Source of the DNA: an uncultured delta proteobacterium
GTDB lineage: Bacteria > Desulfobacterota > Binatia > UBA9968
Direction: 5' to 3'
DNA: 64,000 nt
NCBI GenBank assembly: GCA_963745035.1
Contig: CAVUVW010000020.1
Location: 1-64,000, forward strand
Made by a program: the position numbers and the translations under genes. Every line of letters begins with the position of its first letter. The first letter of the stretch is position 1. Positions 5,311 through 34,237 of the stretch are shown piece by piece. The notes beneath the pieces are model-generated. The model worked only from the letters and a program-made list of their open reading frames with translations, had not been told where the DNA came from and did not search any database.

Positions 5311-5347
5311 TAAAAGCGCTTCTACCTCGTGATTCGGCTTGGTACGC

Positions 5348-10828: not shown

Positions 10829-10966
10829 GACTCCGGTTATCAATCTATAATTTGAATCGTCCGACCGCGTCGGGCCTTTGACACTTAGGCGCTGCCCCGG
10901 ATACCCGGTCGGTCGATTGTATGAAGTCGCGGCCGGCGCGTCGCGGTTCAGCGCCGGAGTTGCTTT

Positions 10967-13268: not shown

Positions 13269-13281
13269 GGCAGGTCTCCTT

Positions 13282-14290: not shown

Positions 14291-14364
14291 GGTTCGTCGT
14301 GCAGGTGCAAAGTTGCTCGCGTACTAATCCTCGCCAAAATAACCCCGCAAAGGAGACAACAATA

Positions 14365-16335
14365 ATGGCGAAGATTGATGACGACGAGGGAAGTAACCCG
14401 TCCGGCAATCGGAGGTTCCAGGAAGTCGTGGAGGCGCGTCTTTCCCGGCGCGGGTTTCTCGGCGGAGGACTTGCTGCTGCGGCGACGTTTTCGCTTAGCG
14501 GACTTGATGCGCTGCTGCGATCGGTGCCTGCCGAGGCGCAAACCAAGGGTCCTCTACTCGGCTTTCAAGCGATCCCGGTGTCAACGGCCGACACCGTCGT
14601 TGTGCCACCCGGATATACCGCGCGCGTGCTCATCGCTTGGGGCGATCCGGTCTCTAATGGTCCTACGTTCAATCAGGACGCGAGCAACAGTGCGGCTGAG
14701 CAGGCGCAACAATGGGGCATGCACAATGATGGCGTAGTCTATTTTCCGATCAACGGCTCGAGGCGCGGCCTGCTCGTGCAGAACAACGAGTATACAGACG
14801 ACGGTTTGCTGTTCACCGACGGAATAGCCAACTGGAACGAAGAGAAAACCAACAAGTCTCTTAACGCTCACGGCGTGTCGATCATCGAAATCCGCAAGGA
14901 AGGGTTCAGGGGCGGAGGCGAGTGGCAGGTTGTGCGCCCATCGCGCTTCGCGCGGCGGATCACGGGCAACACGCCGATAGCGATCGGCGGCCCCGCTGCC
15001 GGCGATGAGCGTTTAAAGACCAGCGCAGATCCGACCGGCAAGCTGGTGCTCGGCACTCTGAACAATTGCGCCATGGGGCACACGCCATGGGGCACCTATC
15101 TGGCATGTGAAGAGAACTTCGACGGATACTTTTTCCGCACGACGACGTCCCCCGACGGCACCGACCCCCGCAGCGCTCTTGAGAAACGGTACGACATCTC
15201 TCCTTTCAATTCCGGCATGCGTTGGTACACCACTCATCCGAGATTCAACGCCGACGCCGAGCCCAACGAGCCCAATCGCTTCGGCTGGGTTGTGGAGATC
15301 GATCCATTCGACCCGAGCTCGACTCCGGTCAAGCGGACGGCGCTCGGTCGTCTGAAACACGAGGGTGCATGGGTGCAGGAGGCGAAAGACGGAAAGATCG
15401 TCGTTTACATGGGCGACGATGAGCGCAACGAATATATTTATCGCTATGTGTCGAATTTGCCATGGCGCAGTGCGCTGTTCCGGGGCATCAACCCGCTTGA
15501 CGACGGCATCCTCTACGTCGCCAAGTTCTACGAAGGCGGCTTCGGTGAGTGGCTGCCGCTCACTCCCGCCAATCCGGCGTTGGCACGCTGGTCGATCAAC
15601 GATATTTTGATCAATACGAGAGCCGCCGCCGACGCGGTTGGCGCCACCATGATGGATCGACCGGAATGGATCGATACATTTCCGCAGGCGCTTACCGCAA
15701 TTGCAACGCTCACAAACAACAATCGCCGCGGCACTGCGCCGGTTTCCGTCAACAACCCGGACGGCAGCACCGTCGCGGGCTCAGCTCGCCCGCCGGTAGA
15801 CGCGATCAATCCGCGGGTCAACAACGTGTATGGTCACATCATCACCTGGCAGTACCGCAGGGATTGGACGGAGCCGACGTTCGAGTGGGAAATCTTTGTG
15901 CTGGCAGGCGATCCGACGGTCGCCGCCCATGGATCGAACATCGACGGCGATAAGTTCGGTTCTCCGGACGGCATCTACGTGGCGCCGAGCGGCAGACTCT
16001 GGATTGAGACCGACGTGTCGACTTCGACGATCAACGCTGGCGACTACGCCGGCTTCGGTAATAATCAGATGCTTTGCGCCAATCCGGAGACTGGCGAAAT
16101 CCGCCGGTTCTTAGTAGGCCCCATTCAATGCGAAATCACCGGAGTGTTCGTTACGCCGGACGAGCGCGCTATGTTCGTCGGCATTCAGCACCCGGGAGAA
16201 ACAGCCGACGAATCACCCAACGATCCAGCCAATCCAAAGCGGTTCAGCTCGTGGCCGGACGGACCTGCCGGCGGGCGTCCGCGCTCATCGTTCATCGTGA
16301 TCACAAAGGATGACGGCGGGCCGATCGGCAGCTAG
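14365..16335 (+). CDS. phoX: PhoX family alkaline phosphatase, Tat-exported
   Basis: SRRGFL Tat motif, NNCAMGHTPWGTYLACEEN, KRTALGRLKHE, MDRPEW, CEITG, IQHPGE. Confidence 0.95.
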   Translation: MAKIDDDEGSNPSGNRRFQEVVEARLSRRGFLGGGLAAAATFSLSGLDALLRSVPAEAQTKGPLLGFQAIPVSTADTVVVPPGYTARVLIAWGDPVSNGPTFNQDASNSAAEQAQQWGMHNDGVVYFPINGSRRGLLVQNNEYTDDGLLFTDGIANWNEEKTNKSLNAHGVSIIEIRKEGFRGGGEWQVVRPSRFARRITGNTPIAIGGPAAGDERLKTSADPTGKLVLGTLNNCAMGHTPWGTYLACEENFDGYFFRTTTSPDGTDPRSALEKRYDISPFNSGMRWYTTHPRFNADAEPNEPNRFGWVVEIDPFDPSSTPVKRTALGRLKHEGAWVQEAKDGKIVVYMGDDERNEYIYRYVSNLPWRSALFRGINPLDDGILYVAKFYEGGFGEWLPLTPANPALARWSINDILINTRAAADAVGATMMDRPEWIDTFPQALTAIATLTNNNRRGTAPVSVNNPDGSTVAGSARPPVDAINPRVNNVYGHIITWQYRRDWTEPTFEWEIFVLAGDPTVAAHGSNIDGDKFGSPDGIYVAPSGRLWIETDVSTSTINAGDYAGFGNNQMLCANPETGEIRRFLVGPIQCEITGVFVTPDERAMFVGIQHPGETADESPNDPANPKRFSSWPDGPAGGRPRSSFIVITKDDGGPIGS

Positions 16336-17238: not shown

Positions 17239-17781
17239 ATGAAATATTTAAACCGAATCCTGGTGCCCACCGATCTCTCCGAGCACTCGCGGCGCGCCCT
17301 GGCCTACGGCTCGTGGTTGTCCGGGGAGGAAAAGGCGGCATTGATGATTCTCCACGTGGCGAGCGATTTCCACGCCTGGGACTTTGCCGGCGAAGATCTG
17401 CCGTTGGCCAATCTTGCTCCCAAAGCCTGGACCGCGGATCGAGTTTTGGCGGAGGCGAGCCTCGATCTGAGCCGGTTTCTGGAATCGAGCATGCACGATC
17501 TTAAAAAAGCCGCCGACGCGAGCAAGCGGGTCGTCATCGGCCCGGTCCCCGAGCGCATCGCCGCGGTGGCCGAAGAAGAGAAAATCGATCTCATCATCAT
17601 GTCGCCGCGCCGGCGCCGCGGCCTGCGCCACTTTCTGTTTGGCTCGATTACCGACGCGCTGATGCGCATCAGCCCATGTCCCGTGCTGTCGATCGCTCCC
17701 GTGCTGCCGTCCGCGCCCTGGCGCGGCGACCTCGCGCCGTTGTTCTCCCCGTGGGCGCGCCGCCCCGCCGAAAGCATCTAA
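17239..17781 (+). CDS. Universal stress protein
   Basis: ILVPTDLSEHSRRAL, DLIIM, LFGSITD..CPVL. Confidence 0.9.
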   Translation: MKYLNRILVPTDLSEHSRRALAYGSWLSGEEKAALMILHVASDFHAWDFAGEDLPLANLAPKAWTADRVLAEASLDLSRFLESSMHDLKKAADASKRVVIGPVPERIAAVAEEEKIDLIIMSPRRRRGLRHFLFGSITDALMRISPCPVLSIAPVLPSAPWRGDLAPLFSPWARRPAESI

Positions 17782-18107: not shown

Positions 18108-18155
18108 GATCGCCGGATCATCTTCCCTGCCCTTTTGTGGTATGAAATCATTGCC

Positions 18156-19685
18156 ATGTCGGATCATTTCGCAGTCATTGACGTCGGCAGCAACGCAATC
18201 CGCTGGCAGATCGCCGCCGTCGATCATCCCAAGCACTACCGAATCATCGAGCAGGAGCGCCAACCGGTTCGTCTGGGGCACGAGGTGTTTCACACCGGCA
18301 AGCTCGACGCCCGCGCGGCGGATTCCGCATTGCGCGTGTTCCGCGACTTCAAGAGCGCCGCCGACCGCTACAAGGTTAAGGCGATTCGCGCCGCTGGCAC
18401 CAGCGCCTTGCGCGAGGCTTCCGACCGCCGGAAGTTCATCCATCGGGCAAGAGCCGCCGGAGTTCCCTTAGAGGCTTTATCCGAACAGGATGAAGCCCGG
18501 CTCATCAGCCTCGGCATCATGAGCGGTCTGCGCTTTCACCTGCCGCTCGGTTTGTTTCTCGATATCGGCGGCGGCAGCGTCGAAATCACCGTCGCCGACC
18601 AGGCCAATACGTTCTGTCTGTTCAGCTTGCCGCTGGGCGCGGTCCGCTTGACCGAGAAGTTTTTCACCACCGACCCGCCCCGCTACAAAGAAATCAAAAA
18701 TCTGCGCGAGCACGTGCGCGCGCGCGTCGCCGCCGTCGCGCGGCGCATCCAAAAAGAAAAGTTCACCATGGCCTTCGGCAGCGGCGGCACGATCACCGCG
18801 CTCGCCGAGACCGACAAAGGCAAGGAGCCTTCGCTCATCGTCCTGCGGCGCCAGCAGCTGAAAGCGCTGCTCGACCTCTTGCTCGAGCGTCCGGTGGCCG
18901 AGCGCGCTCGCATGATCAGCGGCGATCCCAAGCGCGCCGACATCATCATCGCCGGCGGCATCGTGCTGCACGAGGTCATGGCGGCCATCGACTTGGATTA
19001 TCTGTTCGTCTCACGTCGCGGCCTGCGCGACGGCTTGATGATCGATCTGCTGCAGCGCTCCTATCCGGGCTCCGGCGCGTGGCACCCGGACGCCGACCGC
19101 GCCGAGTCGCTCGAACAGGTTTGCCAGAAGTACTCTTACGATGTCAGCCACTCGCGCCAGGTGAGCCAGCTCGCCCTCAGTCTTTTCTATCAGCTTCAAC
19201 GACTGCACAAGCTGCCGGAAAAATACGCCGGAATTCTGCACGCGGCGGCCATGCTGCACGACATCGGCCTGTTCATCGGCGACGCCAAGCATCACAAGCA
19301 TTCCTACTATCTGATCAAAAGCTCGGGCATGAAATCGTTCAGCAAGCTCGACCTCGAGCTGGTCGCCAACATCGCCCGCTACCACCGCAAGGCCCACCCG
19401 AGCCCCAAGCACCTCGGCTTCAGCCAGCTTGCGCCGGTGGACCAGGATGCGGTACGCAAGCTGAGCTCCCTGGTCCGCGTCGCCGACGCGCTGGATTTCC
19501 GGCGCGAGCAGCGCGTCGAGTCGGTGAGCTGCGCGCTGAATAAGACCAAAGCTTTGACGATCTCAGTCGCCGCGACGGAAAGCGTGAAGGAAGAAATCGA
19601 CCGAGCGGCCAAGAAAGGCGGGCTGATTCAGGAAGTTTTCAATGTGGAGCTGGCGCTGCAAAGAGCCAAAAACAACCGATCGTGA
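18156..19685 (+). CDS. ppx: Exopolyphosphatase Ppx/GppA with HD domain
   Basis: IDVGSNAIR, GTSALREA, DIGGGSVE, GLRDG, LHDIG. Confidence 0.93.
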   Translation: MSDHFAVIDVGSNAIRWQIAAVDHPKHYRIIEQERQPVRLGHEVFHTGKLDARAADSALRVFRDFKSAADRYKVKAIRAAGTSALREASDRRKFIHRARAAGVPLEALSEQDEARLISLGIMSGLRFHLPLGLFLDIGGGSVEITVADQANTFCLFSLPLGAVRLTEKFFTTDPPRYKEIKNLREHVRARVAAVARRIQKEKFTMAFGSGGTITALAETDKGKEPSLIVLRRQQLKALLDLLLERPVAERARMISGDPKRADIIIAGGIVLHEVMAAIDLDYLFVSRRGLRDGLMIDLLQRSYPGSGAWHPDADRAESLEQVCQKYSYDVSHSRQVSQLALSLFYQLQRLHKLPEKYAGILHAAAMLHDIGLFIGDAKHHKHSYYLIKSSGMKSFSKLDLELVANIARYHRKAHPSPKHLGFSQLAPVDQDAVRKLSSLVRVADALDFRREQRVESVSCALNKTKALTISVAATESVKEEIDRAAKKGGLIQEVFNVELALQRAKNNRS

Positions 19686-19698
19686 GGGGGGGAAATTT

Positions 19699-20145
19699 AT
19701 GCGACGACAAAGTCTGGAACGAACCATCTTGTTTCTCTGCGACGACAACTCGTGTCTCAGCCAAATTGCCGAAGCCGCGGCCAGGCACCTCGCGCCGCCG
19801 CGCACGCGCGTCTTCAGCGCGGGCGTCAAGCCGAGCACGATTCCGGCCCCCGTGGTGCAAGCCATGCAGGAGCTCGGCATCAGCATGAGCGGCCAGCGAA
19901 GCAAGAGCCTCGCCGACGTGCCAATCCAGGACATCGACTTGGTGGTGAGCTTCGGCGACGCCGACAAGCGCTGCGATCGTCTTCCTCAACGGGTCAAGAT
20001 CGAGCGTTGGCCGATCGCCGATCCGGCGGCAAATCCCGAAAACCCATCCGCCCTCCCGGCCATCCGCGTGCGCCGCGACGAGATCGATAAGCGGGTCTTC
20101 GCGCTGTTTCTCGATCACTGGCGCAACATCCCGCGGCCGTCCTGA
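19699..20145 (+). CDS. ArsC/LMW-PTP-like protein with a degenerate P-loop
   Basis: LFLCDDNSCLSQIAE (Leu at the CX5R Arg position), FSAG, WPIADP. Confidence 0.85.
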   Translation: MRRQSLERTILFLCDDNSCLSQIAEAAARHLAPPRTRVFSAGVKPSTIPAPVVQAMQELGISMSGQRSKSLADVPIQDIDLVVSFGDADKRCDRLPQRVKIERWPIADPAANPENPSALPAIRVRRDEIDKRVFALFLDHWRNIPRPS

Positions 20146-20162: not shown

Positions 20163-20684
20163 ATGAAACTCTATTTCATGCGCCACGGCATCGCCCTGCC
20201 GGCGGACGATCCGGCCGCGACCGCGGACCATGATCGGCCGCTCACCGACAAAGGCGCAAGGCGGGTGCGCAAGGCCGCAAAAGGCATGCGGCGCCTCGGC
20301 CTATCCTTCGATCTGCTGCTCTCCAGCCCACTCGCGCGCGCGCGCCAGACCGCGGACATCGTCGCCGGCTTGTTGCACCATGAAGCGATTGAAGAACTGA
20401 CGAGCCTGGCACCGGAAAGCGCGATCGACGAGCTTATTCAGGATCTCGCGCGCTACCAGGATCGCAGCAGTCTGCTGCTCGTCGGCCACGAGCCTTCGCT
20501 AAGCGGAGCCGTCGCTCATTTGATTGGGACCAAAGGAGGGCGCGGCGTCAGCTTGGAATTCAAGAAAGGCGCCGTTTGCTGCGTCGACATCGACGCGCCC
20601 GCCCGGCCGAATACCGGCACGATTTGCTGGCTGCTCGCGCCCAAACAGCTACGGCTGCTTGGCGAACCGCCGGCGAAACGTTGA
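20163..20684 (+). CDS. sixA: Phosphohistidine phosphatase
   Basis: MRHG, RPLT..G, SSPLARARQTA, LVGHEP. Confidence 0.92.
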   Translation: MKLYFMRHGIALPADDPAATADHDRPLTDKGARRVRKAAKGMRRLGLSFDLLLSSPLARARQTADIVAGLLHHEAIEELTSLAPESAIDELIQDLARYQDRSSLLLVGHEPSLSGAVAHLIGTKGGRGVSLEFKKGAVCCVDIDAPARPNTGTICWLLAPKQLRLLGEPPAKR

Positions 20685-20690: not shown

Positions 20691-21620
20691 ATGGCAGCCG
20701 TGGCGAAGGAACCGGGACCAAAAGCTTCCGCCCGGAAAAAACTCGTCCAGTTGACGCGCACGCGCCTCGAGCGCTTCGTCAGCATCGTCCCGAAGTTTTT
20801 AGTCAACGACGACCCCGCGCTGATTCACGATCTGCGCGTGCGGAGCCGGCGGCTGCAACAAACGCTGCGCGTGGTGTTGCCGCGCCCCAAGCCGCGCGGC
20901 GCGCGCAAGATCACCAAAGTCCTGCGCCGGGCGCGCCAGGCCCTCGGGCCATGCCGCAATCTCGACGTCAATTTAGAGCTGGTGCAAAAGCGCGGCGCCG
21001 AAGCGCAAGCGCCGGAGGCGCGCGACGCTTGGCAGACTCTCACCGAAGATTTGTCGAACCGGCGCCAAGGGCTGCTCGACGACGCCCGCCGCCGCATCGC
21101 CAAGCACGATTTAGCCGCATTCATCGCCCGTGCCCAGGCGGCAATCTCCCAACTCGACGCGCAAGCCGATCCGCTGCCGGACATGGAAGAGGCCTTGCGC
21201 GGCGCGCTGGCGGAGTGGGACGAAGCCTATACTCTGGCCGAACAAAGCCGTGGTCCGGAAGAGCTCCACACCCTGCGCCTCGCCGGCAAGCGGCTGCGCT
21301 ACCGCGCCGAGCTGTTGGCCGACGCCGGCATCGCATCCATCAAGCCGATGACCAAGGATTTGAAAAAAATCCAGGCGGCGCTGGGCGACTGGCACGATCG
21401 ATCCGTCCTGCTTGAGTTTATCGCGGAATTTATCCGCCGCCCGAAATTCATGGAGCATCATCCGGACCGCGCCAGCGCACTGCTCGCCCAAATGGAGGAA
21501 GAGCAGAAACGCAGCGCCGCGACGATTGAAGAGTTTATGACCCAGGCGCCCCAGCTCAGAAAGCGCTGGCACCGGGAAGCGCGCGCCGGAGCGCGCGCGG
21601 GCAAAGTCGAGACGCAATAA
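20691..21620 (+). CDS. CHAD-domain polyphosphate-binding protein
   Basis: IHDLRVRSRRL, RNLDV, LHTLRLAGKRLRY, LGDWHD. Confidence 0.92.
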   Translation: MAAVAKEPGPKASARKKLVQLTRTRLERFVSIVPKFLVNDDPALIHDLRVRSRRLQQTLRVVLPRPKPRGARKITKVLRRARQALGPCRNLDVNLELVQKRGAEAQAPEARDAWQTLTEDLSNRRQGLLDDARRRIAKHDLAAFIARAQAAISQLDAQADPLPDMEEALRGALAEWDEAYTLAEQSRGPEELHTLRLAGKRLRYRAELLADAGIASIKPMTKDLKKIQAALGDWHDRSVLLEFIAEFIRRPKFMEHHPDRASALLAQMEEEQKRSAATIEEFMTQAPQLRKRWHREARAGARAGKVETQ

Positions 21621-22175
21621 CCGTCGCTCTGCCGCTCGAATGAAAACCCGTTAAAAATCCATTACTCTTTCTGTCTACTCGAAATATCATAAAATCTTTC
21701 GCAAGCAAATTTTTGTGGTACGGCGGTTGCAAATCGTCAGCATGCCACCAAAACCAGCGGGTAGCAGACCTCTGCGATTGAATTCGTCCCTCCCAATATT
21801 CCTAGTCGGGGGATCAGCCATATCCGATTCGGCCAGAGCAATCGAACCGCGTCTTGACATGCGAAAATTACGAAATCTAGCTTGGCAATTTAATTAACCC
21901 AGAAACGCGAGGGACGAATCAATCAAAATATGACGCATGTGAAAGGACGGGCACGACGAACGGCATCTATGTCCCAAAAATGCAGTTTTTTAATGGAATG
22001 TCAGCTATCTGACAGACACTCCAAGGGATTTTGGATATGCCTCTGTCACACGGTTCCAAATGCGGGTTTCGTTTCCTGGAACGGCGCCGCGCGGGTGGCA
22101 ACGTGGAAATTTCGACTTTGCTCGCTCGGGAAGCAAGTTTAATAGCGGTTCACGCAAGCCGGAGCCAACAGCCCC

Positions 22176-22886
22176 ATGGTTAAAACTACGTCCATGCTAA
22201 AGGTCGATGCGAAAGCTCTTAAGCAGCTCAAAAATTTCTGCCGTTTATCGGCCGCTCAACTGGACAGGCTCGCCGGCAATCTGACCGTAAAGACTTTTAA
22301 TAAGGACGAAATCATTTGTGATCAGGACGAGCAGGCCAGGCTCGTGTACCTGCTCGTCTCCGGAGTCGTCAGAGTCTCGTATAATAGCTATGAGCGGCAG
22401 ACGATTGTTAGCCTGGTTCCGGCAGGAGAATTTTTCGGCCTCGACTCGCTCGTGCCCGAGTCGTGCCACCCTTTCAGGTGCGACGCCTTCGAGACCTCGA
22501 CCGTAGGTTCCATCAAACCCCAGGTTTTCGTCGAAACCCTGCTCGACACCTCCTATGAAAACTTTCTTTTGGGCTTCGCCACCACGCTGAATTTGAACCG
22601 ACGATCGTACGTGCACTGCATTCGCGGCATCGGCCTTGACGTGCGCCGGCGGATAGCCCTGGAGCTTGCGAATCTGGCGCACCATTTTGGCTCCGCCGAT
22701 TCGCGTGGAACCATGATCACCCTGCCCATCAGTCACGAGACGCTCGCCAGCTTCGTCGGCGCCTCGCGCCAGCAGGTCACGCAATATTTGAATGAATTCG
22801 ATCGCGCGAAGGTTATTTTGAGAGAGGGGCGACGGATCATCGTCAACCCTAAAAACCTGCGTAAAATCATCGAGAGCAGACCGTGA
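22176..22886 (+). CDS. Crp/Fnr family regulator
   Basis: GEFFG cNMP-type domain, ISHETLASFVGASRQQVT HTH. Confidence 0.9.
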   Translation: MVKTTSMLKVDAKALKQLKNFCRLSAAQLDRLAGNLTVKTFNKDEIICDQDEQARLVYLLVSGVVRVSYNSYERQTIVSLVPAGEFFGLDSLVPESCHPFRCDAFETSTVGSIKPQVFVETLLDTSYENFLLGFATTLNLNRRSYVHCIRGIGLDVRRRIALELANLAHHFGSADSRGTMITLPISHETLASFVGASRQQVTQYLNEFDRAKVILREGRRIIVNPKNLRKIIESRP

Positions 22887-22938
22887 TATTCATCGACGTT
22901 TCCCGACCAAGGTTTGAACTCTGGCGCGGTTCTTCGTT

Positions 22939-23244
22939 ATGGAGCTGAGAAAACACCCGCGTATGACGTGCCTCGGTCGTCCCAACTGGCCTCCCGAGTG
23001 GAACGGACCCTACGGCCCGGACAATCCCCTGCCGCGCGGCGAGGTCGGCATTCTCGTCCGGGTGGAGCCTTCCTCCAACATTGCGGAAAGCCCGTACTGC
23101 TTTCTAGTTATTCAGTGGAACCAGCAAGAATATGCAGGTTCTTTGTACCTCGACGACAAAAACTTTCTGCGGGAAATCGTCGAGCTTCTCCGCGGCTGTC
23201 GCGGCCAGTCGATCGCGGAAATCGGCAGCATAGACGTTCCCTGA
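22939..23244 (+). CDS. Hypothetical LRxHP/GEVG family protein (copy 2)
   Basis: MELRKHPRM..NWPPEW..GEVGIL..DD..F..SIAEIGSID. Confidence 0.75.
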   Translation: MELRKHPRMTCLGRPNWPPEWNGPYGPDNPLPRGEVGILVRVEPSSNIAESPYCFLVIQWNQQEYAGSLYLDDKNFLREIVELLRGCRGQSIAEIGSIDVP

Positions 23245-23269
23245 TCCGCCGATCCCTTCCTCATCTAAT

Positions 23270-23970
23270 CTATGGATGGAGTCCGTTGCGCGCGATCACC
23301 CGCTCCACCCGGGCGCGCAAGGTCTCGAAAACTTCCTCCACCGATCCCGAAGCGTCGATGATCTCAAAACCGTAGGTCTCGACCATCTTGTCGAATTCTG
23401 CGAGCAGCCATTTTTGATAGCGGACGAAGCTCTCGTACATGTCCTCGCCCATGTGCATGTCCATGCCGGATTCCCAGTAGTCGAAACCGGTGCTTTGCAG
23501 CACGCGGGTGACCAGATCGTCGATCTTGACGCGCAGATAAAAAATCGCGTCGGGCTGCAGCGCGAAGCCGTACACTTCGCGCAGCCATTCCGGATCGGCG
23601 CCGCGCACGATGGCGCGCGCCATCAGGGAATAAATATAGCGGTCGGTCAAAACGATAAATCCCGCGCGCAGCGCCGGGATGATTTCGTTTTCCAGGCGAT
23701 CGGCGAAGTCGGTGGCGTAAAACAGGCTCATGGTGATGCCGCCGAGAGTGTGCCCCTCCTTGGCCTGCTTGAGCCGCTTGCCGGCCAACGGCGAGCGCGT
23801 CATGCCGGTGTCGAGCACCGCGTGGCCGTGGTTTTCCAGCCATGGCGCAGCAAAGTAATGTGGGTCGAGCGCCCGACGCCGTCCGTGCCCTCCAAAACGA
23901 TCAGCTTGCCCTTGAGCTCCTCGAGGTCTATGCCCGGGAGCCCTTCGCCAAAGAAGTTAAATCGAGCCAT
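23270..23970 (-). CDS. Thymidylate-kinase-like protein B (frameshift near 23845)
   Basis: LIVLEGTDGVGRST (Arg at the Walker A Lys), YATDFADR, LTDRYIYS. Confidence 0.88.
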
Positions 23971-24662
23971 CTTCGAACCGTGGTTTTCTTTGTGCCGGTC
24001 AACGCATCCGAGACAATGCGCCGAACCTCCGCCTGTTGTTCTTCGATCGAGCGAGTCGCGTCGATGGCCACCAGATTGAATTCATCGACCATCTTTTCAT
24101 ATTCATCGACGATGCGGCTCTGAAAGATCCGAAAACTCTCCTCGATGTCATTGCTTAAATCGAGATCCATGCCCGCTTCGTAATATTTGATCGCGTCGCG
24201 GCCGCCGAGAATGCGCTTCATGGCGACGTCGAGCGGCGTGCGAAAATAGAAGGCGACCGTGGGCTTCACCGCGAACGCATAAAGCTCGCGCACCCATTTC
24301 GGACTCACGCCGCGCACGACGTCGCGCGCGAACGCCGTGTAAATGTAGCGGTCGGCGAGAACCACGGCGCCCGCCTTCATCGGCGGGATGATGTCGTGCT
24401 CGGTGCGGTCGGCGAAATCGGTCGCGTGGATCAGGCTGAACGTCATCGGCGTGAGCATCTGTTTCTTTTTGCCGCGCTTGGTCACGTCGCGCACCAGCGG
24501 CGAAGAATTCCACTCGCTGAAATAAACGACGTAGCCTTCGGCTTCGAGCCATTTCTGGAGCAGCGCGAGCTGCGTGCTCTTGCCCGAACCGTCGATGCCC
24601 TCGACGATAAACAAGCGTCCCGGAAAGCGGTGCTTTCCGTACATTTTCATTCCGCCTGCCAT
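23928..24662 (-). CDS. Thymidylate-kinase-like protein A
   Basis: FIVEGIDGSGKSTQ, HATDFADR, LADRYIYT. Confidence 0.9.
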   Translation of the reverse strand: MAGGMKMYGKHRFPGRLFIVEGIDGSGKSTQLALLQKWLEAEGYVVYFSEWNSSPLVRDVTKRGKKKQMLTPMTFSLIHATDFADRTEHDIIPPMKAGAVVLADRYIYTAFARDVVRGVSPKWVRELYAFAVKPTVAFYFRTPLDVAMKRILGGRDAIKYYEAGMDLDLSNDIEESFRIFQSRIVDEYEKMVDEFNLVAIDATRSIEEQQAEVRRIVSDALTGTKKTTVRRWLDLTSLAKGSRA

Positions 24663-24761
24663 GCTGGACCTTTCTTGCTTCACGAGTCCCGACCGGTAGA
24701 AAGTCGGCGACTTAGCAAACGACTCCGGAATGTTGCCTAGCCAGTCAAGCCGAACGAAATT

Positions 24762-24779
24762 GTTAAATCTCTGTTAAGC
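24762..24779 (-). promoter_or_regulatory. Putative Pho box for the TMK-like pair
   Basis: Minus strand GCTTAAC-AGAG-ATTTAAC, followed by TTGACT (24743-24748). Confidence 0.55.
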
Positions 24780-24966
24780 GAACCAGCCGGGACTGCCTGC
24801 CCGTGCTTCATTAACTCGTTCTTCATCGATGCTTAATGCTGCGTTCACCTACCGGAGCTACTGAGTACGGTCTAAAATAGACGATGAGAACAAGATTGCA
24901 CTCATCGAAGTCAAAATAGGTCGCGTTGCCGGAGCCCATGCGCCAATTCATACAACGTTCAACGAT

Positions 24967-24984
24967 CCGTAACAATTCCGTAAC
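24967..24984 (+). promoter_or_regulatory. Pho box upstream of pstS
   Basis: CCGTAAC-AATT-CCGTAAC. Confidence 0.75.
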
Positions 24985-25020
24985 ATTGTGTTCTTTACAA
25001 GACTGACAAAGGAGTCTAAC

Positions 25021-26009
25021 ATGAAAAATGTCATATTCTCAGTCGCCCTGGCCGCGCTCTTGGGATTGCTCCCTAACACTCGGCCACGGCCAGATCATTC
25101 AAATCGACGGCTCCAGCACGGTTTTCCCGTCACCGAAGCCGTCGCGGAGGAGTTTCAAAAGTCAAAGAAGGGCAAGATCAAAGTGACCGTCGGTATTGCC
25201 GGCACCGGCGGCGGCTTTAAAAAGTTTTGCCGCGGTGAGACGGACATCAGCAATGCCTCGCGGCCGATTTTGAAACAAGAAATGGAGGCGTGCAAAGGCG
25301 CCAACGTCGAGTACATCGAGCTGCCTATCGCTTTCGACGCCCTTACCGTAATCATCAATCCTAAAAACAACTGGGCGACGTCAATGACCGTGGCTGAGCT
25401 CAAGAAGATTTGGGAACCCGCAGCCCAGGGAAAAATCACCAACTGGAATCAGGTTCGGGATAAATGGCCCAACGCGCCATTGAAGCTTTTCGGTGCCGGC
25501 GCGGACTCCGGGACTTTTGACTACTTCACCGAAGCAATCATCGGAAAGGCGAAGTCCAGCCGTGGCGACTTCACCGCCAGCGAGGATGACAACGTGCTGG
25601 TTCAAGGCGTCGCCAACGATCGTCAACGCATTGGGTTTTTTCGGCTTCGCGTATTACGCTGAAAACAGCAAAAACTCAAAGCCGTGGCGAATTGACGCCG
25701 GCAAGGGCGCTGTGGTCCCATCGGAGAAGACCGTACTCGACGGCACCTACCAGCCGCTTTCCCGACCGATCTATATTTATGTGAGTAAGAAGGCGTTGGA
25801 GAAGCCGGAGGTCAGAGAGTTTGTGGAATTCTATCTCAAGAATGCTCCGCAAGCTTGTCAAGGAAGTCAAATACGTTCCGCTCCCTGACAAGGTTTATGC
25901 ACTGGGCACAGGCCGTGTAAAAAGCGCCAAATTGGGAACGGCGTTCGGCGGCCATGCCGACGTCGGAGTCACGATCGACGATCTGATGAAAAGAGAGCCG
26001 AAGCTGTAA
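25021..26009 (+). CDS. pstS: Phosphate ABC transporter substrate-binding protein (several indels)
   Basis: [53 protein letters not shown]. Confidence 0.93.
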
Positions 26010-26105
26010 CGGTCTTGGAAGCGTCTGATCGATGGCGCGGGGCAGTACCCGCCCCGTCGCCGCTTCGGTCCAGATGCTTTACTCCGATCAGAGGATAACA
26101 CGCCG

Positions 26106-27063
26106 TTGAAAACGAATCAAGCCGACGCCGTCTATCTCGCACATACAAAGCCAAGTCAGAGGCCGGGCTTCCGGCGCTAACACTCCAGAAAATTCGCGAG
26201 CGCACCATCGAGTTTGGCATGTTACTCTGCGCGCTTTTTTCGGTCGCGATTACCGGCGGTATCGTCTGGGTGCTGCTGGTCTACGAGTCCTGGCATTTTT
26301 TTGAGAATGTATCGATCATTGATTTTCTCACTGACACGCAATGGACGGTTCTGTTCGAGAACCCGCGCTATGGCATCATGCCGTTGGTCACCGGAACCCT
26401 TGTGACCTCGGGCATCGCTCTGCTTGTGGCGTTACCGCTGGGAACCACCATTGCGATCTATTTGAGCGAATACGCCAACACCACGGTTCGTGAAATCTTA
26501 AAGCCGATTCTGGAGTTATTGAGCGCCGTGCCGACAGTGGTTTTCGGCTACTTCGCGTTGCTGTTTATCACGCCCATGCTGCAAAATGTGCTGCCCGGCT
26601 CTGCCGGGGTTTAACATGTTAGGTCCCGGTATTGTCATCGGCATTATGATTGTTCCCTATATAAGTTCTCTCAGCGAAGACGCCATGAAGGCTGTGCCGG
26701 TGCATATTCGCGAAGGCTCCTACGCCATGGGCGCCACTCGTTTGCAAACCGCGCTTCGCGTGCTCATTCCCGCGGCATTCTCCGGTATCGCTTCCGCCTA
26801 CGTGCTGGGATTCTCGCGCGCCGTCGGCGAAACCATGGTGGTCGCCGTGGCCGCAGGCACTCAGCCCAATCTGACGTTGAACCCCATGGAAGGCGCCGCC
26901 ACGATCACGGCGTACATCGTGCAAGTGAGCCTGGGCGATCTGCCGCACGGCAGCATCGCTTATCAAAGCATCTTTGCGGCCGGCTTGACCCTGATGTGTG
27001 ATGACGTTGATTTTCAACATCGGCGGCTATCTGCTGCGGAAACGCTTCAGGGAGATTTACTGA
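26106..27063 (+). CDS. pstC: Phosphate ABC permease (indels; start uncertain)
   Basis: AIYLSEYA, ELLSAVPTVVFG, SEDAMKAVP, SRAVGETM. Confidence 0.92.
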
Positions 27064-27064
27064 T

Positions 27065-27990
27065 ATGCAAAAGCCGGCTCAATCCGAAGTTGAAAAGAGC
27101 GTTGCAGCGCAACAAGACTCGCGACAAGCTTTTTGTCGTGTTCGGCTTGCTCGCGACTTTCGTCGGAATGCTTACGTTGGCAGCCTTGCTCGCCGATCTA
27201 GCCATCGACGGATTGGCGCGTCTGAAGCCACACTTCTTTACTTCGTATCCCTCGCGCTTTGCCGGCCAAGCAGGGATTTTGTCCTCTTGGGTCGGCACCA
27301 TTCTCGTCATGATCGTCACGGCGGCAACGGCGATCCCGATGGGCGTCAGCTGCCGGTGTTTACCTGGAGGAATATGCGCCCAAAAACTGGTTCACGGCGC
27401 TGATCGAAATCAACATCGCCAACCTCGCCGGCGTGCCCTCGATCGTTTACGGCTTAATGGCGCTGGGGCTGTTCGTCTACCAGTTCGGCTTCGGGCAAAG
27501 CGTGCTCTCCGCCGGGCTCACCCTGGCGCTGTTGATCCTACCGATCGTCATCGTCGCGACCCGCGAATCCATCCGCGCAGTTCCGGCCAGCATGAGAGAA
27601 GCCGCCTATGCTCTCGGTGCGACAAAATGGCAAACGACAAGCGATCATGTCTTGCCCTATTCCATGGGCGGCATCTTGACCGGCGTCATTATCGGTCTTT
27701 CCCGCGCTATCGGCGAAACCGCGCCGCTGATCACCATCGGCGCCCTGACTTTTATCGCATTTCTTCCTGACTCGCCGATCAAAGCGGAGTTTCCCTTCAT
27801 CTCCTTCGATTGGATTTGGTCGCCCTACTCGGTTATGCCGATTCAAATGTTTAACTGGGTTTCCCGGCCGCAGGCCGAGTTCCATCTCAATGCGGCAGCC
27901 ACGGGTCTGGTGTTGATGGTCATGACCCTGGCGATGAACGGCATTGCGATTTATTTTCGTTACCGCTTCCGCAAGCGCATCAAATGGTAG
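27065..27990 (+). CDS. pstA: Phosphate ABC permease (indels)
   Basis: [35 protein letters not shown]. Confidence 0.92.
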
Positions 27991-28033
27991 AGCCACGGAC
28001 GTGAAAATGACAAATGCACCTGATGGAGGTAAG

Positions 28034-28889
28034 ATGAACTTGCAAGAAGCGGCAGAAACGCTCACTCCGGGCCGCCCCTCGATGAAAGCCATGGACACCT
28101 CTGTCATTACAGCGGTAAAAACCGACGAGCCGGCCAACAAGATTTTCAGCGTGGACAACGTCGAATTTCTACTATGGCGAGAAGCACGCGCTGAAATCCA
28201 TCAATTTGGAAATCGGCGAGAAGAAATCGACCGCCTTCATCGGCCCCTCCGGTTGCGGCAAGACCACCCTGCTGCGCTGCCTGAATCGGATGAACGATCT
28301 GGTGCTCAACACCAGGGTCACCGGCGAGATCAGGCTCGACGGCAAGAACATCTACGATCCATCCATGGACGTGATCAATTTGCGCCGCCGCGTCGGCATG
28401 ATCTTTCAGAAATGGAACCCGTTTCCGAAAAGCATCTACGAGAACATCGTTTACGGCCTGCGCATCGTCGGCGTGAATAATCGCGCCTATCTTGACGAAG
28501 TGGTCGAGAAGAGCCTGCGGCGCGCCGCCCTATGGGAAGAGGTCAAAGATAGTCTTCACAAGAGTGCAGCCGACATGTCCGGCGGCCAGCAGCAGCGCCT
28601 GTGCATCGCCCGCGCGCTCGCGGTCGAGCCCGACGTGCTGCTCATGGACGAGCCCTGCTCGGCCCTCGATCCGATCTCCACGGCGAAGATCGAAGAGCTG
28701 ATCCACGAGCTCAAGGAAACCTTCACCATCGTGATCGTCACCCACAACATGCAGCAGGCGGCGCGCGTGTCCGACTACACCGCTTTTTTCTATCTGGGCG
28801 AGTTGATAGAGTTCGGCGAGACCGGCAAGCTTTTCACCGCGCCCGAGAAGCGCCAGACCGAAGACTACATCACCGGTCGTTTCGGTTAA
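28034..28889 (+). CDS. pstB: Phosphate ABC ATPase (indel near 28168)
   Basis: [39 protein letters not shown]. Confidence 0.95.
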
Positions 28890-29600: not shown

Positions 29601-30320
29601 ATGGCCGCCAACGGACAAAAAATTCTAGTCGTCGAGGACGAGCCGGATATCTCCAAGCTCGTAAGCTACAACCTGACCCAGGAGCGCTTCCGCGTGCTCA
29701 CCGCCGAGGACGGCGAGCAGGCGCTCAAGGTCATTCAACGCGAAAAACCCAATCTGGTGGTGCTCGATTTGATGCTGCCCGGCCTCTCCGGCATGGAAGT
29801 GTGCAAGATCCTGCGCGACCGGCCCGAGACCGCCAAGCTGCCGATTCTCATGCTGACGGCCAAGGCCGGCGAAGCCGACCGCGTGGTCGGCTTGGAAATG
29901 GGCGCCGACGACTATCTGGCCAAGCCCTTCAGCCCGCGCGAGATGGTGGCGCGGGTGCGCGCGATCCTGCGGCGCGCGAACAACGCCGCCCATGCCGAGC
30001 CGCCGCCGGCGTACGACCGCGGCGGCCTGCACATCGACTTTTCCACCTACGAGGTGTTCGTGCACGGCAAGTCCGTCAAGCTGACGTTGAAAGAGTTTGA
30101 GCTGTTGCGCTTTTTGGTCCAAAATCCCAATCGTGTGCTCAGCCGCGATCAGCTTCTCGATCGGGTGTGGGGCGGCGAGACCTTCGTTACGCCGCGCACC
30201 GTCGACGTGCACATTCGCCGCCTGCGCAAAGCCATCGAGAAGGACGACAGCAAACCGCAATGGATTTTGACGCTTCGGGGGGTGGGCTACAAATTCGATG
30301 AAAAGGCTTTGGACCAGTAG
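29601..30320 (+). CDS. phoB: OmpR-family response regulator
   Basis: VVEDE, LDLMLP, GADDY.KPF, RTVDVHIRRLR; located between phoU and phoR. Confidence 0.92.
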   Translation: MAANGQKILVVEDEPDISKLVSYNLTQERFRVLTAEDGEQALKVIQREKPNLVVLDLMLPGLSGMEVCKILRDRPETAKLPILMLTAKAGEADRVVGLEMGADDYLAKPFSPREMVARVRAILRRANNAAHAEPPPAYDRGGLHIDFSTYEVFVHGKSVKLTLKEFELLRFLVQNPNRVLSRDQLLDRVWGGETFVTPRTVDVHIRRLRKAIEKDDSKPQWILTLRGVGYKFDEKALDQ

Positions 30321-32517
30321 CCTCGTCGCCAAGGTTTTTCTCTCCTATCTCGCCGTCGTCGTACTGCTCTTCGCCAGCTTCTATCTTTTTTCCAGCGCCG
30401 AGCTGAAAATGCGCCAGATCGCCGCCATCGGCGAGCGCATGGGCCAGGAAGCGCGCTTCCTGGCGACGGTGCTGCCGGCGGGCGCGGCCGGCGAGACGCT
30501 CGACGCGTTGTGCCGGCGGCTCGGCGCCGCTCTCGGCACCCGCATCACCGTGATCGACGCCGGACGGCAAAGTTCTCGGCGACTCCGCCGAGTCTTCGGC
30601 GAGCATGGAAAACCACATCGGCCGGCCGGAAGTCGTCGAAGCGCTCCAACGCGGCGACGGCAGCGCGACCCGCTACAGCACCACCGTGCGCCATGAAATG
30701 CTCTACCACGCCTTTTACGAAAAGAGCGCGGGCGAGGGGCGCATCGTCCGCGTCGCCAAGCCGCTGAAGGAGGTGGAAAGCGCGATCGAGTCGATTCGCT
30801 GGTCGATTTTGACCGGGCTGTTTGCTCGCCTCGGGCTTGGGACTGGCGCTGGCCTGGTTTTTTTCCCGCCACCTGTCGCGCCGTTTTCGGCGTTTGGAGC
30901 AATTTACCGATCAGGTCGCCCAGGGATCTTTCCCGCAGAATTTTTTCCCCGCGCGCACCCGTGACGAGATCTCGGTGCTCGAACAGCGCCTCACCGAGAT
31001 GAGCCTCAAGATCCGCGACAACTTACAGCTCGTCGTCGACGAAAAGGAAAAAGCCGACTCGATCCTGCGCTGCATGATCGAGGGCGTGCTGGTGCTCGAT
31101 CCCAAGGGCCAGGTGCTGGTCATGAACGATCAGGCCAAGGCGATGTTTCACATCGCGCCCGAGCGCGATGTAGCGGGCGCGTCGATGCTGGAGATCTCGC
31201 GCCACCCCGAAATGCATAAAATCCTCGCCGAAGTTCTGGCCTTCGACTTCTTTCAGCAGCGCTACTCCAAGGAAGTCGAGCTCGACGAGGAGCGCTGGTT
31301 TCGCGTGAACGCGGTGCGCCTGCGCGACTTTCGCGGCGCCTCCCTCGGCTCGATCCTGGTGTTCCACGACATCACCGACATCAAGCGCTTCGAGTCGATG
31401 CGCTCCGACTTCGTCGCCAACGTGTCCCACGAGCTGCGCACGCCGCTCACCGCGATCCGCGGCTACGTCGAAACTTTGCTGGACACTCCGCCGGCGGACC
31501 CCGAGGACGGCCGGCAGTTTCTGACCATCATCGACCGCCACTCCGAGCGCCTGAGCCGCCTCACCGAAGATTTGCTGACGCTCTCGGACCTCGAATCGGG
31601 CAATATCCGGCTGATGCTCCACGCTCTCGACGCCAACCAGTTGATCCAGCGCGTGCTGGAAATTTTCTGGGATCGCGCCGCCAAGAAAAACATCCGCCTC
31701 ACCCATCGCCCGGCGGACGATCTGCCGCGCCTGCAGGGCGACCTGGATCGTCTGCAGCAGCTCTTTATCAACCTGGTCGACAACGCGATCAAATACACTC
31801 CGCCCGGCGGCGAAGTGTCCTTGACCGCGGCGCGCACCGCCGGCAAGAACGGCGCGGCGCAGATCGAAATCGCCGTCACCGACACCGGCCCGGGGATTCC
31901 GGAAAAGGATTTGCCCCGGCTCACCGAGCGCTTTTACCGGGTCGATAAAGCGCGCTCGCGCGATCTCGGCGGCACCGGGCTCGGCCTGGCGATCGTCAAG
32001 CACATCGTCCAGGCGCACAAGGGCGAGTTGAAAATCGAAAGCGCGCTCAACAAAGGCACCACCGTGCGCGTGCTTATTGCCGGCCGCTCCTCCTCCCCAC
32101 CCCGACGGTATTTTGTTTCTATGCCGCGGCAACTCCTGCCGGAGCCAGATGGCCGAAGGCTTCGCCCGCCGGCTCGCCAACGGCACGCCCATCTACAGCG
32201 CCGGCACCAAGCCCGAAGAAATTCATCCGCTGGCGGCGCGCGTCATGAAGGAAGCCGGCGTCGACATCGCCGCGCAACGATCCAAAGGACTGGAAGCGAT
32301 TCCGCTGGAGCGCGTCGATATGCTGATCACCTTGTGCCATGACGACGGAGAATGCCCGGCGCTCGCCCATCCGGTCCGGCGCGCCCATTGGCCGCTCGCC
32401 GACCCGGCGCTGGCGCGCGGCAGCGACGAAGAGATCCTCGCGGCCTTTCGCGCGGTTCGGGACGAAATCCGCGCCCGCGTGGAAGAGCTGTTTTCACGTC
32501 CTCGCCCATCTTTGTAA
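30298..32517 (+). CDS. phoR: PhoR sensor kinase, probably fused to a C-terminal ArsC/LMW-PTP domain (indels near 30565, 30822 and 32075)
   Basis: TM-HAMP-PAS, DFVANVSHELRTPLT, NLVDNAIKY, ERFYRVDKARSR, GTGLGLAIVKH; then LPAAPPPHPDGILFLCRGNSCRSQMAE in a frame shifted by one base. Confidence 0.85.
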
Positions 32518-32551
32518 CCTTGCCGTAATATTTCCGTAACCTTTCTTGACA
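32512..32551 (+). promoter_or_regulatory. Triple Pho box next to a -35 element, upstream of DUF47-pit
   Basis: TTGTAAC, CCGTAAT and CCGTAAC at 32512, 32523 and 32534, then TTGACA at 32546. Confidence 0.75.
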
Positions 32552-32604: not shown

Positions 32605-33219
32605 ATGTTTAACTTTGCTCCGCACAAAGAGAAATTCTTCGACTTGTTCAAGGAATCGGCGCAGAACGCGCTGGCCGGCGCCCGGGCGCTCAAGGACATG
32701 TTCGATCGCTACGAACATCCGCAGGAGTCCTGGAAGGTGCTCAAAGATCTCGAGCACGAGGGCGACCGGATCACCCACCGCACCATCCGCAGCCTGAATC
32801 AGACTTTCTTGACCCCCATCGACGCCGAAGATATCCACGCGCTGACCACCGCCCTCGATAACGTGATGGACGCCATTGAGGCCGCCGCCGCGCGCATGGT
32901 GCTCTTTCGCATCGAAACTCCGACCCCGGAGGCGAGAGAGCTGTGCGACACCATCGTGACCTCGACCGAACAACTGGTCAAAGCCGTGTCGCATATGCCG
33001 CGCCTGGACGACATCGACGAATACTGCATCGAAATCAACCGCCTCGAAAACACCGCCGATGACATCTACCGCAAGGCCATCGGCAGCCTGTTCGAAAACG
33101 GCACCTCGCCGATGGACGTGATCAAGTGGCTCGATATCTACGAAATTCTCGAATCGGCCACCGACCGGTGCGAGGACGTCGCCAATACCCTCGAAACCAT
33201 CGGCTTGAAAAATTCCTGA
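32605..33219 (+). CDS. DUF47 family Pit accessory (PhoU-like) protein
   Basis: LEHEGDRI, TFLTPIDAEDI, LESATDRCEDVAN. Confidence 0.92.
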   Translation: MFNFAPHKEKFFDLFKESAQNALAGARALKDMFDRYEHPQESWKVLKDLEHEGDRITHRTIRSLNQTFLTPIDAEDIHALTTALDNVMDAIEAAAARMVLFRIETPTPEARELCDTIVTSTEQLVKAVSHMPRLDDIDEYCIEINRLENTADDIYRKAIGSLFENGTSPMDVIKWLDIYEILESATDRCEDVANTLETIGLKNS

Positions 33220-33238: not shown

Positions 33239-34237
33239 ATGTTCGAAGCCAATCTTCTCCTCTACGGCGTTCTTGCGCTGATCCTCGCCGCCGAATTCGT
33301 CAACGGCTGGACCGACTCGCCGAACGCCATCGCCACCGTGGTCTCGACCCGTGTCCTGTCGCCTTACCAGGCCTTGATCATGGCAACCGTGCTCAACGCC
33401 GTCGGCGCCATGTCGGGCACCGCCGTCGCCGCCACCATCGGCAAAGACATCGTGCGGCCCGAGGTGATCAATCTTACGACCGTCGCGGCGGCGATGATCG
33501 GCATCATTTTTTGGAGCACCTTGGCCTGGTATTGGGGTTTGCCGACGAGCGAGAGCCACGCTTTGATCGCGGGTCTCACCGGCGCCGGCCTGGCGACCGC
33601 CGGGCCGGAGAGTCTGCTCTGGACCGGTTGGAGCAAGGTGCTGATCGGCCTGGCGTTTTCGACTTTCTTGGGCTTCTTCGGCGGCTTATTGTTGATGGCG
33701 CTGCTTTACCGGATGCTGGCCAACAGCCGCCCCGGCACGGTGCGCCGCATCTTCGGCCGGCTCCAGATCGTCTCCGCCGGCTTCATGGCGTTCAGCCACG
33801 GCTCCAACGACGGCCAGAAGTTTATCGGCGTATTCACTCTGTCGCTTCTGCTCGGCGGAATTTTACCGAGCTTCCAGGTGCCGCTCTGGGTGATCCTGTT
33901 GTGCGCCGTGACCATGGGCCTGGGCACCGCGGTCGGCGGTTGGCGCATCGTCAAGACCATGGGCCTGCGACTCACCAAGCTCGAGCCGGTGCACGGCTTC
34001 GCCGCGGAGACCGCCGCAGCGCTCACCATCGAGCTCGCCACCCGCCTGGGCATTCCCTTGAGCACCACGCATACGATCAATACCGCCATCGTCGGCGTCG
34101 GCACCACCAGAAGATTTTCCGCCGTACGCTGGGGCGTCACCTTCGAGATCGTCACCGCCTGGATCCTCACCTTCCCCGTGTGCGGGGTCATCGGTTGGGG
34201 AGCGACGAAAATTCTTTTGCTGCTGAGCGGCGGTTAA
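33239..34237 (+). CDS. pit: Inorganic phosphate transporter (PiT family)
   Basis: NGWTDSPNAIAT, PTSESHAL, HGSNDGQK, PLSTTH. Confidence 0.93.
   Translation: MFEANLLLYGVLALILAAEFVNGWTDSPNAIATVVSTRVLSPYQALIMATVLNAVGAMSGTAVAATIGKDIVRPEVINLTTVAAAMIGIIFWSTLAWYWGLPTSESHALIAGLTGAGLATAGPESLLWTGWSKVLIGLAFSTFLGFFGGLLLMALLYRMLANSRPGTVRRIFGRLQIVSAGFMAFSHGSNDGQKFIGVFTLSLLLGGILPSFQVPLWVILLCAVTMGLGTAVGGWRIVKTMGLRLTKLEPVHGFAAETAAALTIELATRLGIPLSTTHTINTAIVGVGTTRRFSAVRWGVTFEIVTAWILTFPVCGVIGWGATKILLLLSGG

Follow-up and report, generated by a model that had tools for sequence, protein, structure and literature searches.

A PPK3-like gene pair of the thymidylate kinase fold in the phosphate-starvation cluster of an uncultured delta proteobacterium: a probable two-subunit polyphosphate kinase

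The closest described relatives of the gene pair considered here are two proteins, Saci_2019 and Saci_2020, of Sulfolobus acidocaldarius, both formerly annotated as thymidylate kinases, which together make up the polyphosphate kinase PPK3 (reported first in the preprint 10.1101/2024.08.28.610084 and then in J Biol Chem 2026, PMC12995831). According to the part of that paper available to us, on which all statements about published PPK3 below are based, Saci_2019 (the catalytic subunit, cPPK3) and Saci_2020 (its partner, rPPK3) form a heteromeric, reversible polyphosphate (polyP) kinase with an alpha2beta2 assembly that favours making ATP from ADP and polyP, and Saci_2019 also forms polyP from ATP. 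Saci_2019 alone is about ten-fold less active and Saci_2020 alone is inactive; neither phosphorylates dTMP, and the enzyme, SaPPK3, prefers ADP, uses GDP less well and does not use GTP as a donor. The polyP cleft is conserved in cPPK3 and not in rPPK3. Both genes belong to an operon that also contains ppx, sixA and a gene for a CHAD protein, and predicted PPK3 operons of bacteria and archaea hold both subunits beside PPX, SixA, CHAD, PstS and PstC, in neighbourhoods that resemble those of PPK1 (PMC12995831). Here we describe a gene pair of this kind at 23270-24662 of a 64,000-nucleotide (nt) stretch of DNA, referred to as the window, from an uncultured delta proteobacterium (contig CAVUVW010000020.1, positions 1 to 64,000).

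Our analysis suggests, with a probability of roughly three in four, that the pair is a bacterial member of PPK3, that is, a two-subunit polyphosphate kinase derived from two exapted thymidylate kinase (Tmk) paralogs and placed in a phosphate-starvation cluster. The family placement, the pairing, the motifs, the genomic context and the conserved regulatory boxes are all observed in the DNA, and from them we infer the activity, its direction, the oligomer state and control by PhoB. Gene 1, the cPPK3-like catalytic subunit, lies on the minus strand at 23928-24662 (ATG at 24662, stop codon at 23928-23930) and encodes an intact protein of 244 amino acids (aa). Gene 2, the rPPK3-like partner, lies at 23270-23970 on the same strand (ATG at 23970) and is cut in two near 23847 by the loss of one base; it overlaps gene 1 by 43 nt including the stop codon of gene 1, or 40 nt without it. 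Gene 1 carries a GSGKS Walker A motif, ATDFADR and DRYIY, and its key residues are K28 (Walker A), R105 (DRY) and the positively charged R58, R63, K66, K67, R155 and K159, while gene 2 carries the same ATDFADR and DRYIY and a GVGRS Walker A motif with Arg in place of Lys. A preliminary description of this DNA had recognised two overlapping Tmk-like paralogs with these two Walker A variants; the shared motifs, the variants and the overlap are all there, but gene 2 as it stands in the window is not an intact open reading frame (ORF). Gene 1 and the intact gene 2 ortholog of the closely related locus L003 share 43% identity (E 1e-59), so their paralogy is far above chance level. Two relatives, P0001 (427 aa) and P0121 (460 aa, with a still more degenerate P-loop in its partner module), combine a catalytic and a partner module in one polypeptide, and could be true fusions or frameshift artefacts of the overlap region.

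The window pair matches the Pfam family Thymidylate_kin (gene 1 at 2.3e-21, the C-terminal part of gene 2 at 5.7e-13), and among the best 120 relatives of gene 1 those with a name are labelled 'dTMP kinase', some of them from 'Candidatus Binatia bacterium'. Public annotation would therefore have the two genes be ordinary ATP:dTMP kinases, a duplicated housekeeping Tmk, a reading which also draws on the score of gene 1 against TIGR00041, the dTMP kinase equivalog model (86.5 bits for a cutoff of 83.25; the two pieces of gene 2 score 47.0 and 17.6). We regard it as very improbable. Direct comparison of gene 1 with all PDB chains placed 2plr, 4nzy, 4rzx and 5h70 at the top with 211.9 bits (E 8.7e-62, residues 15-221), about four-fold above the best true Tmk at 56.9 bits, and 5h70 is STK_15430 of S. 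tokodaii, a named homolog of Saci_2019 (PMC12995831). Similarly, the C-terminal part of gene 2 reached 117.3 bits (E 6.9e-33) with 2plr and no more than 33.8 bits with true Tmks. When HMMER aligns gene 1 to a true Tmk, LLFSADR of the Tmk pairs with LIHATDF of gene 1, and therefore the Phe and Arg of LLFSADR, which we take to be the thymine contacts of Tmk, would be His and Phe in gene 1. The TREPGG region of canonical Tmk is EWNSSP in gene 1, and the dTMP-site segments are not conserved. The absence of dTMP kinase activity in Saci_2019 and Saci_2020 (PMC12995831) likewise argues against ordinary Tmks, as do two features of the relatives set out below, namely the conserved link with ppx, sixA and CHAD and the replacement of the Walker A Lys by Arg in 78/78 partners. 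Taken together, sequence comparison clearly points to gene 1 as an ortholog of the PPK3 catalytic subunit and not a canonical dTMP kinase (dTMPK). At the same time, no Pfam match of the pair to PPK2 was found at E ≤0.001, the families matched being Thymidylate_kin and, below its cutoff, dNK. PPK3 catalytic subunits of this kind just pass the NCBI dTMP-kinase model, and because of this their relatives are publicly named 'dTMP kinase', which points to systematic misannotation; genomes carrying PPK3 may be counted as having no polyP kinase, with a bearing on inferences about phosphorus cycling from metagenomes.

Direct comparison with SaPPK3 shows that both systems consist of two adjacent paralogs of the dTMPK fold, one catalytic and one not, which databases label as thymidylate kinases. 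Their catalytic subunits share the Walker A Lys, the DRX Arg and a positively charged patch (lysines 65-67, R155 and K159 of gene 1 align with Lys or Arg in STK_15430, 2plr), their partners are without that patch, and the neighbours include ppx, sixA and CHAD. On the other hand, the host of the window pair is a bacterium, its nearest relatives being metagenome-assembled genomes labelled Binatia or Thermodesulfobacteriota, and the pair, which is known from sequence alone, forms its own transcription unit outside the ppx operon, divergent from pstS and with its own Pho-box-like site, its genes overlapping by 40 nt plus the stop codon. The partner differs too: it keeps the DRX Arg and has a Walker A Arg and an invariant Arg in a TRSP motif, a comparison in which rPPK3 is represented by the published description of its DRX motif.

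More distant systems share some of these features. The PPK2 enzymes (classes I-III) are likewise P-loop kinases that shift phosphate between polyP and nucleotides, and the two-domain class II PPK2s also combine an active module with a degenerate one, the inactive N-terminal module (PMC12995831). Canonical Tmks (TIGR00041/PF02223) have the same fold, P-loop, DRX and lid motifs, and the predicted dimerisation of gene 1 with the intact partner of L003 uses the same helices, but the pair sits among phosphate and polyP genes and not among DNA-replication genes. In bacteria with PPK1, Pho-regulated ppk-ppx loci place a polyP kinase beside ppx under phosphate-starvation control, and the window has a similar arrangement with its putative polyP kinase adjoining ppx; PPK1 is a single polypeptide of unrelated fold, unlike the two-subunit PPK3.

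A search with the gene 1 protein gave at least 8000 scored candidates, all at E ≤1e-10, the best 120 of them at 80-97% identity, and in a library clustered at 50% identity its relatives fell into 389 clusters at E ≤1e-30 and 1721 at ≤1e-10. Scanning of GTDB species genomes yielded at least 466 confirmed stretches, and the counts of loci given here refer to the best 80 of these (L001 onward). A second paralog is present in 78 of the 80 loci, the other two (L028 and L036) stopping at a contig edge; it lies directly downstream of the catalytic gene in 75 loci and about 3 kb upstream, with ppx in between, in L047, L048 and L052. By tblastn, Ppx was found within 3 kb of the pair in 51/80 loci, SixA in 31/80 and CHAD in 19/80, and at least one of Ppx, SixA, CHAD, PstS, PstB and PhoU within 10 kb flanks in 59/80; these counts used the window proteins as the only queries, so divergent CHAD, SixA and PstS are undercounted, and many loci end at contig edges. 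The suspected link between the pair and polyP genes is thus conserved. In the four closest loci (L001-L004; 87-89% identity to gene 1), the full order of the window, PstS, the pair, CHAD, SixA, an ArsC-like gene and Ppx, recurs in L001, L002 and L003, and L004 follows it up to the ArsC-like gene, where its contig ends without covering ppx. Pfam analysis of 35 ORFs of L003 and L002 bears out the gene order and found neither PPK1 nor PPK2 among them.

Judged by their record titles, the best 80 loci come from no fewer than 14 named phyla of bacteria and, in addition, from Nitrososphaerota. Acidobacteriota account for 29 of them, Chloroflexota for 10 and Nitrospirota for 9, followed by Planctomycetota and Nitrososphaerota (5 each), Armatimonadota and Verrucomicrobiota (3 each), Binatota, Thermodesulfobacteriota and Bacteroidota (2 each) and Eiseniibacteriota, Pseudomonadota, Actinomycetota, Gemmatimonadota and Sumerlaeota (1 each), with 5 loci carrying no phylum label. 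The definition of PPK3, in 2024-2026, was based on a single archaeon, and in bacteria the enzyme was said to be rare, with 'only few bacterial homologues' (10.1101/2024.08.28.610084) or 'a few bacteria' (PMC12995831); the accessible supplement text of PMC12995831 makes no mention of Binatia or Desulfobacterota. Among uncultured bacteria of soil and sediment, however, the unit of two genes is common. The idea of the enzyme family is not new, PPK3 having been published, and what goes beyond the available part of PMC12995831 is the partner with a Walker A Arg and a retained DRX Arg, the breadth in bacteria and the dedicated Pho box. Among the relatives, PPK3-like domains also occur in fusion with HD/Ppx-GppA_III, with SPX and DUF2252, with MFS transporters and APH/DUF2252, with NUDIX and, in giant proteins of polyvalent type that have or lack ART-PolyVal, with InPase (P0127, P0137, P0139, P0254, P0163, P0178, P0194, P0197, P0198, P0212, P0253, P0157, P0208, P0262 and P0239).

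When the 80 catalytic copies were aligned with the 78 partners, the two subunits separated sharply at the Walker A motif, which reads GxGK[ST] in 80/80 catalytic copies and GxGR[ST] in 78/78 partners. The DRX Arg is present in all 80 catalytic copies and in 77 of the 78 partners, L050 having DCY. Six columns (positions 58, 63, 66, 67, 155 and 159 of gene 1) hold Lys or Arg in at least 80% of the catalytic copies and in less than 30% of the partners, and several of them align with Lys or Arg in the STK_15430 structure, which fits a polyP cleft kept in cPPK3 and not in rPPK3, as described in the accessible part of PMC12995831. Other fixed differences between catalytic copies and partners are E50/G56, S53/R59 (the TRSP motif of the partner) and H79/Y85. 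This invariant Lys/Arg split offers a clean, testable handle for mutagenesis. A quick LG+G4 tree with 83 rows (taken from 34 of the 80 loci, both window genes and 13 representatives; unrooted, with no canonical Tmk outgroup) put the Arg-type partners on one side of a branch with an SH-like approximate likelihood ratio (SH-aLRT) support of 99, their branching mirroring that of the catalytic copies, and both window genes grouped with L001-L004 in their respective halves. Two sequences, P0222 and P0261, have an intact Walker Lys and NKY instead of DRY; read from their motifs only, these two and P0236 fit Sulfolobaceae-type rPPK3/cPPK3. The loss of the DRX Arg in rPPK3 itself rests on two Sulfolobaceae proteins, Saci_2020 and STK_15420 (PMC12995831, Fig. 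S14 legend).

These patterns allow a tentative further idea, which we think has rather less than an even chance of being right: that the partner is a different kind of dead subunit from the Sulfolobus rPPK3, ancient and found across phyla, with a Lys-to-Arg lesion, a retained DRX Arg and a gained TRSP Arg, and that Pho-controlled PPK3 is a main polyP kinase of large uncultured soil and sediment groups. Considering that the DRX Arg is kept and the disabling lesion is different, the Arg-type partner may still bind nucleotide or phosphate, perhaps gating the catalytic subunit as a sensor of energy charge or phosphate. If the partner were such a distinct sensor subunit, Pho-controlled PPK3, and not PPK1 or PPK2, would be a main polyP kinase of Acidobacteriota, Nitrospirota, Chloroflexota, Binatia-like bacteria and Nitrososphaerota, a reach well past the 'few bacteria' recorded to date.

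A complex of the two subunits was modelled as a 1:1 pair of gene 1 (76-row alignment, L008 left out) and the intact partner of L003 (72-row alignment), the latter chosen because the partner gene of the window is broken. The model scored 0.62, as compared to 0.01 for the best of three controls; among solved complexes 116 of 157 attain this mark, and among mismatched pairs 2 of 215, a calibration that is rough here, where our own alignments were used. The runs shared at least 87% of contacts, and the partner had a pLDDT score of at least 79. The predicted interface joins residues 71-89 and 118-130 of gene 1 with residues 77-94 and 126-136 of the partner, in the region of the ATDFADR helix, and also includes the partner-specific N-terminal residues 8-12. 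The heterodimer foreseen in the preliminary description can thus be modelled well above controls, though through what is a generic Tmk dimer face.

Both the gene pair and the divergent pstS are preceded by candidate PhoB sites. The repeat noticed earlier ahead of the pair, TTAACAGAGATTTAACA (TTAACA-N5-TTAACA), lies at 24761-24777 on the minus strand, the strand of gene 1, and 95 nt upstream of its ATG, while a perfect repeat, TCCGTAACA twice at 11-nt spacing, lies on the plus strand at 24966-24985 and ends 36 nt before the ATG of pstS (25021). A triple Pho-box-like repeat making up two overlapping sites is found just before the DUF47-Pit genes (32514-32541, plus strand). With up to 2 mismatches to GTAACA-N5-GTAACA, the window contains 4 sites, all just upstream of Pho genes, compared with 1.07 expected, and 3 of 100 shuffles reached 4. 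L001, L002, L003 and L004 all have a box of at most 2 mismatches on the strand of the catalytic gene, 83-119 nt upstream of its ATG, and a second one on the pstS strand 283-297 nt away. Both boxes are therefore conserved in place and strand in 5/5 genomes, the window included, within a spacer otherwise full of indels, which supports, at the level of sequence motifs, a PhoB-type control exerted separately on the pair and on pstS. In the lineage of the window, the PPK3 unit would in this way be tied into the Pho regulon. At 3 mismatches the pattern is not enriched in the window (23 sites for 16.15 expected, with 6/100 shuffles reaching 23), and weak Pho-box-like sites upstream of phoX and ppx are not counted as Pho boxes here. 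A sigma-70 promoter scan gave no convincing promoter for the pair.

We propose the following working model for the pair as a PPK3. Gene 1 would be the catalytic subunit, with the Walker A Lys, the DRX Arg, a lid Arg and the Lys/Arg-rich patch to which polyP binding is assigned in the available part of PMC12995831, and gene 2, with its Walker A Arg and without the positive patch, the non-catalytic partner. By homology to SaPPK3, the two would form a hetero-oligomer in which the partner activates the catalytic subunit and which reversibly transfers the terminal phosphate, ADP + polyPn <-> ATP + polyPn-1. PhoB would switch the pair on under phosphate limitation, along with phosphate uptake and polyP turnover; such induction is most likely because of the pair's own Pho-box-like site and its position between pstSCAB-phoU-phoBR and the ppx-sixA-CHAD operon. 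Alternatively, the pair could be a polyP-dependent kinase with another main acceptor or role, perhaps making nucleoside diphosphates from monophosphates in the manner of class II PPK2, or acting on guanosine polyphosphates together with its neighbour from the Ppx/GppA family. That neighbour and the fusion of one relative to a NUDIX domain and of others to HD/Ppx-GppA_III leave some room for this, but SaPPK3 prefers ADP, uses GDP less well and does not accept GTP as a donor (PMC12995831), and gene 1 shares its conserved nucleotide-site motifs with STK_15430, so we consider another acceptor to be quite improbable. The earlier proposal of a heteromeric polyP/nucleotide phosphotransferase in place of a housekeeping Tmk is supported and, as a PPK3, corresponds to the published pair Saci_2019/Saci_2020 (PMC12995831).

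The state of gene 2 bears on whether this enzyme is complete in the organism. Its first 56 codons are read at 23803-23970 and the other 192 at 23273-23848 in another frame, and DNA alignment places the deletion at about 23847, where the window has CA-TGG and its four closest relatives have CAGTGG. The gene 2 orthologs of L001-L004 are continuous ORFs of 233 codons with an identical 40-nt overlap with the catalytic gene, and a programmed frameshift in gene 2 was ruled out because these four have one uninterrupted ORF at that place. Gene 2 is not alone in being broken: compared with the intact L003 proteins, there are two frame changes in pstS and one each in pstC, pstA, pstB and gene 2, and a further one at about 32100 in phoR, where PhoR of L002 and L003 carries a C-terminal LMWPc domain. 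Relative to L003 and L002, about 13 single-base indels fall within 23842-28163, mainly insertions and outside homopolymers. PhoX, Ppx, PhoU, PhoB, Pit and gene 1 align to L003 in a single frame, and the indel damage is therefore clustered.

This clustering would be compatible with a PPK3 in decay, in which gene 2, pstS, pstC, pstA and pstB are true pseudogenes and the catalytic subunit is left alone with low or no activity, as the roughly ten-fold lower activity of cPPK3 by itself (PMC12995831, as available) might lead one to expect. We think this unlikely. The broken pieces retain 85-98% protein identity to L003 (98% for the C-terminal part of PstA, 95% for PstB), on the whole no less than the 88% of the intact gene 1, and so give no hint that constraint is relaxed; in-frame stops other than those from the shifts were not noticed, and the fragmented pstS, pstC and pstA ORFs of L002 fit a technical problem in such regions. 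Because the broken pieces keep this level of identity, the frameshifts are probably, as judged from the alignments, a local sequence-quality artefact common to gene 2 and the pst genes.

Several points nevertheless weigh against assigning the window pair to PPK3. Gene 1 narrowly exceeds the TIGR00041 cutoff (86.5 vs 83.25). A full-text literature search found one archaeal PPK3 study and no characterised bacterial PPK3, and the tmk, ppk1 and ppk2 content is known for the 64-kb window alone and not for the complete genome. The loss of the DRX Arg that marks rPPK3 is not seen here, gene 2 having DRYIY and 77 of the 78 partners DR. In the tree, P0222 and P0261 fall outside the partner clade (placement support 30), and for this reason we call gene 2 rPPK3-like and not an ortholog of Saci_2020. 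The heteromer may not be made in the organism, since gene 2 is frameshifted in the window. Finally, the helices of the predicted interface are, we presume, those used by true Tmk homodimers, and Tmk dimers have been solved; the model score may therefore mirror likeness to these dimers, and a preference for heterodimer over homodimer does not follow from it.

The surroundings of the pair consist largely of phosphate genes. On the ppx side, with which the pair is convergent, phoX, an alkaline phosphatase gene at 14299-16335 on the plus strand (Pfam E 6.4e-152), forms the outer edge of the Pho cluster and is syntenic in L003. It is followed by a conserved 177-aa ORF and a Usp gene (17239-17781), and then by the operon of ppx (18135-19685), an ArsC/LMWPc-like gene (19642-20145), sixA (20163-20684) and the CHAD gene (20691-21620), all on the plus strand. 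The ArsC/LMWPc-like gene is kept between ppx and sixA in L001-L004 (37-59% identity by tblastn). The pair had been placed beside ppx, sixA and CHAD, and all three are indeed near, but CHAD and gene 2 are separated (21621-23269) by a Crp-family (cNMP-binding) regulator gene at 22176-22886 and an ORF of 101 aa that belongs to no family. This insert is found in the window only; in L001-L004 it is missing and CHAD follows the partner gene after about 60-100 nt.

On the other side, gene 1 is divergent from pstS, as the preliminary description had it, and the plus strand carries pstS (ATG 25021), pstC, pstA and pstB at 25021-28889, phoU from 28904 and phoB at 29601-30320. Then come phoR from 30822 to 32505 (its C-terminal LMWPc domain being in another frame from about 32100), a PhoU_div/DUF47 gene at 32605-33219 and a PHO4/Pit phosphate transporter gene at 33239-34237, the last two identified with Pfam. 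In L002 (2152-4380, minus strand) and L003 (1135-3450, minus strand), PhoR is fused to a C-terminal LMWPc domain in proteins of 743-772 aa, a histidine kinase layout that is unusual in a Pho sensor. The earlier statement that the cluster has no ppk1 or ppk2 holds for the window as scanned with Pfam: among 84 non-overlapping ORFs of at least 80 aa (25 + 59), where small fragments could escape, no polyphosphate kinase family and no further Thymidylate_kin was found.

Farther out, between 41000 and 57000 or so, the G+C content falls to 0.49-0.55 and there are numerous short ORFs without a Pfam match, together with an isolated C-terminal fragment of a DNA ligase at 49480-49803; this region may be degraded or foreign DNA, or may hold more frameshifts. 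Upstream of the Pho cluster, at 49-14123, there is a set of metal and oxyanion genes, which comprises genes for a copper-type P-type ATPase with YHS/HMBD domains, a chromate transporter, an MFS protein and a Na/H exchanger, a MIP channel fragment, an LMWPc (ArsC-like) gene and an ArsR-type regulator.

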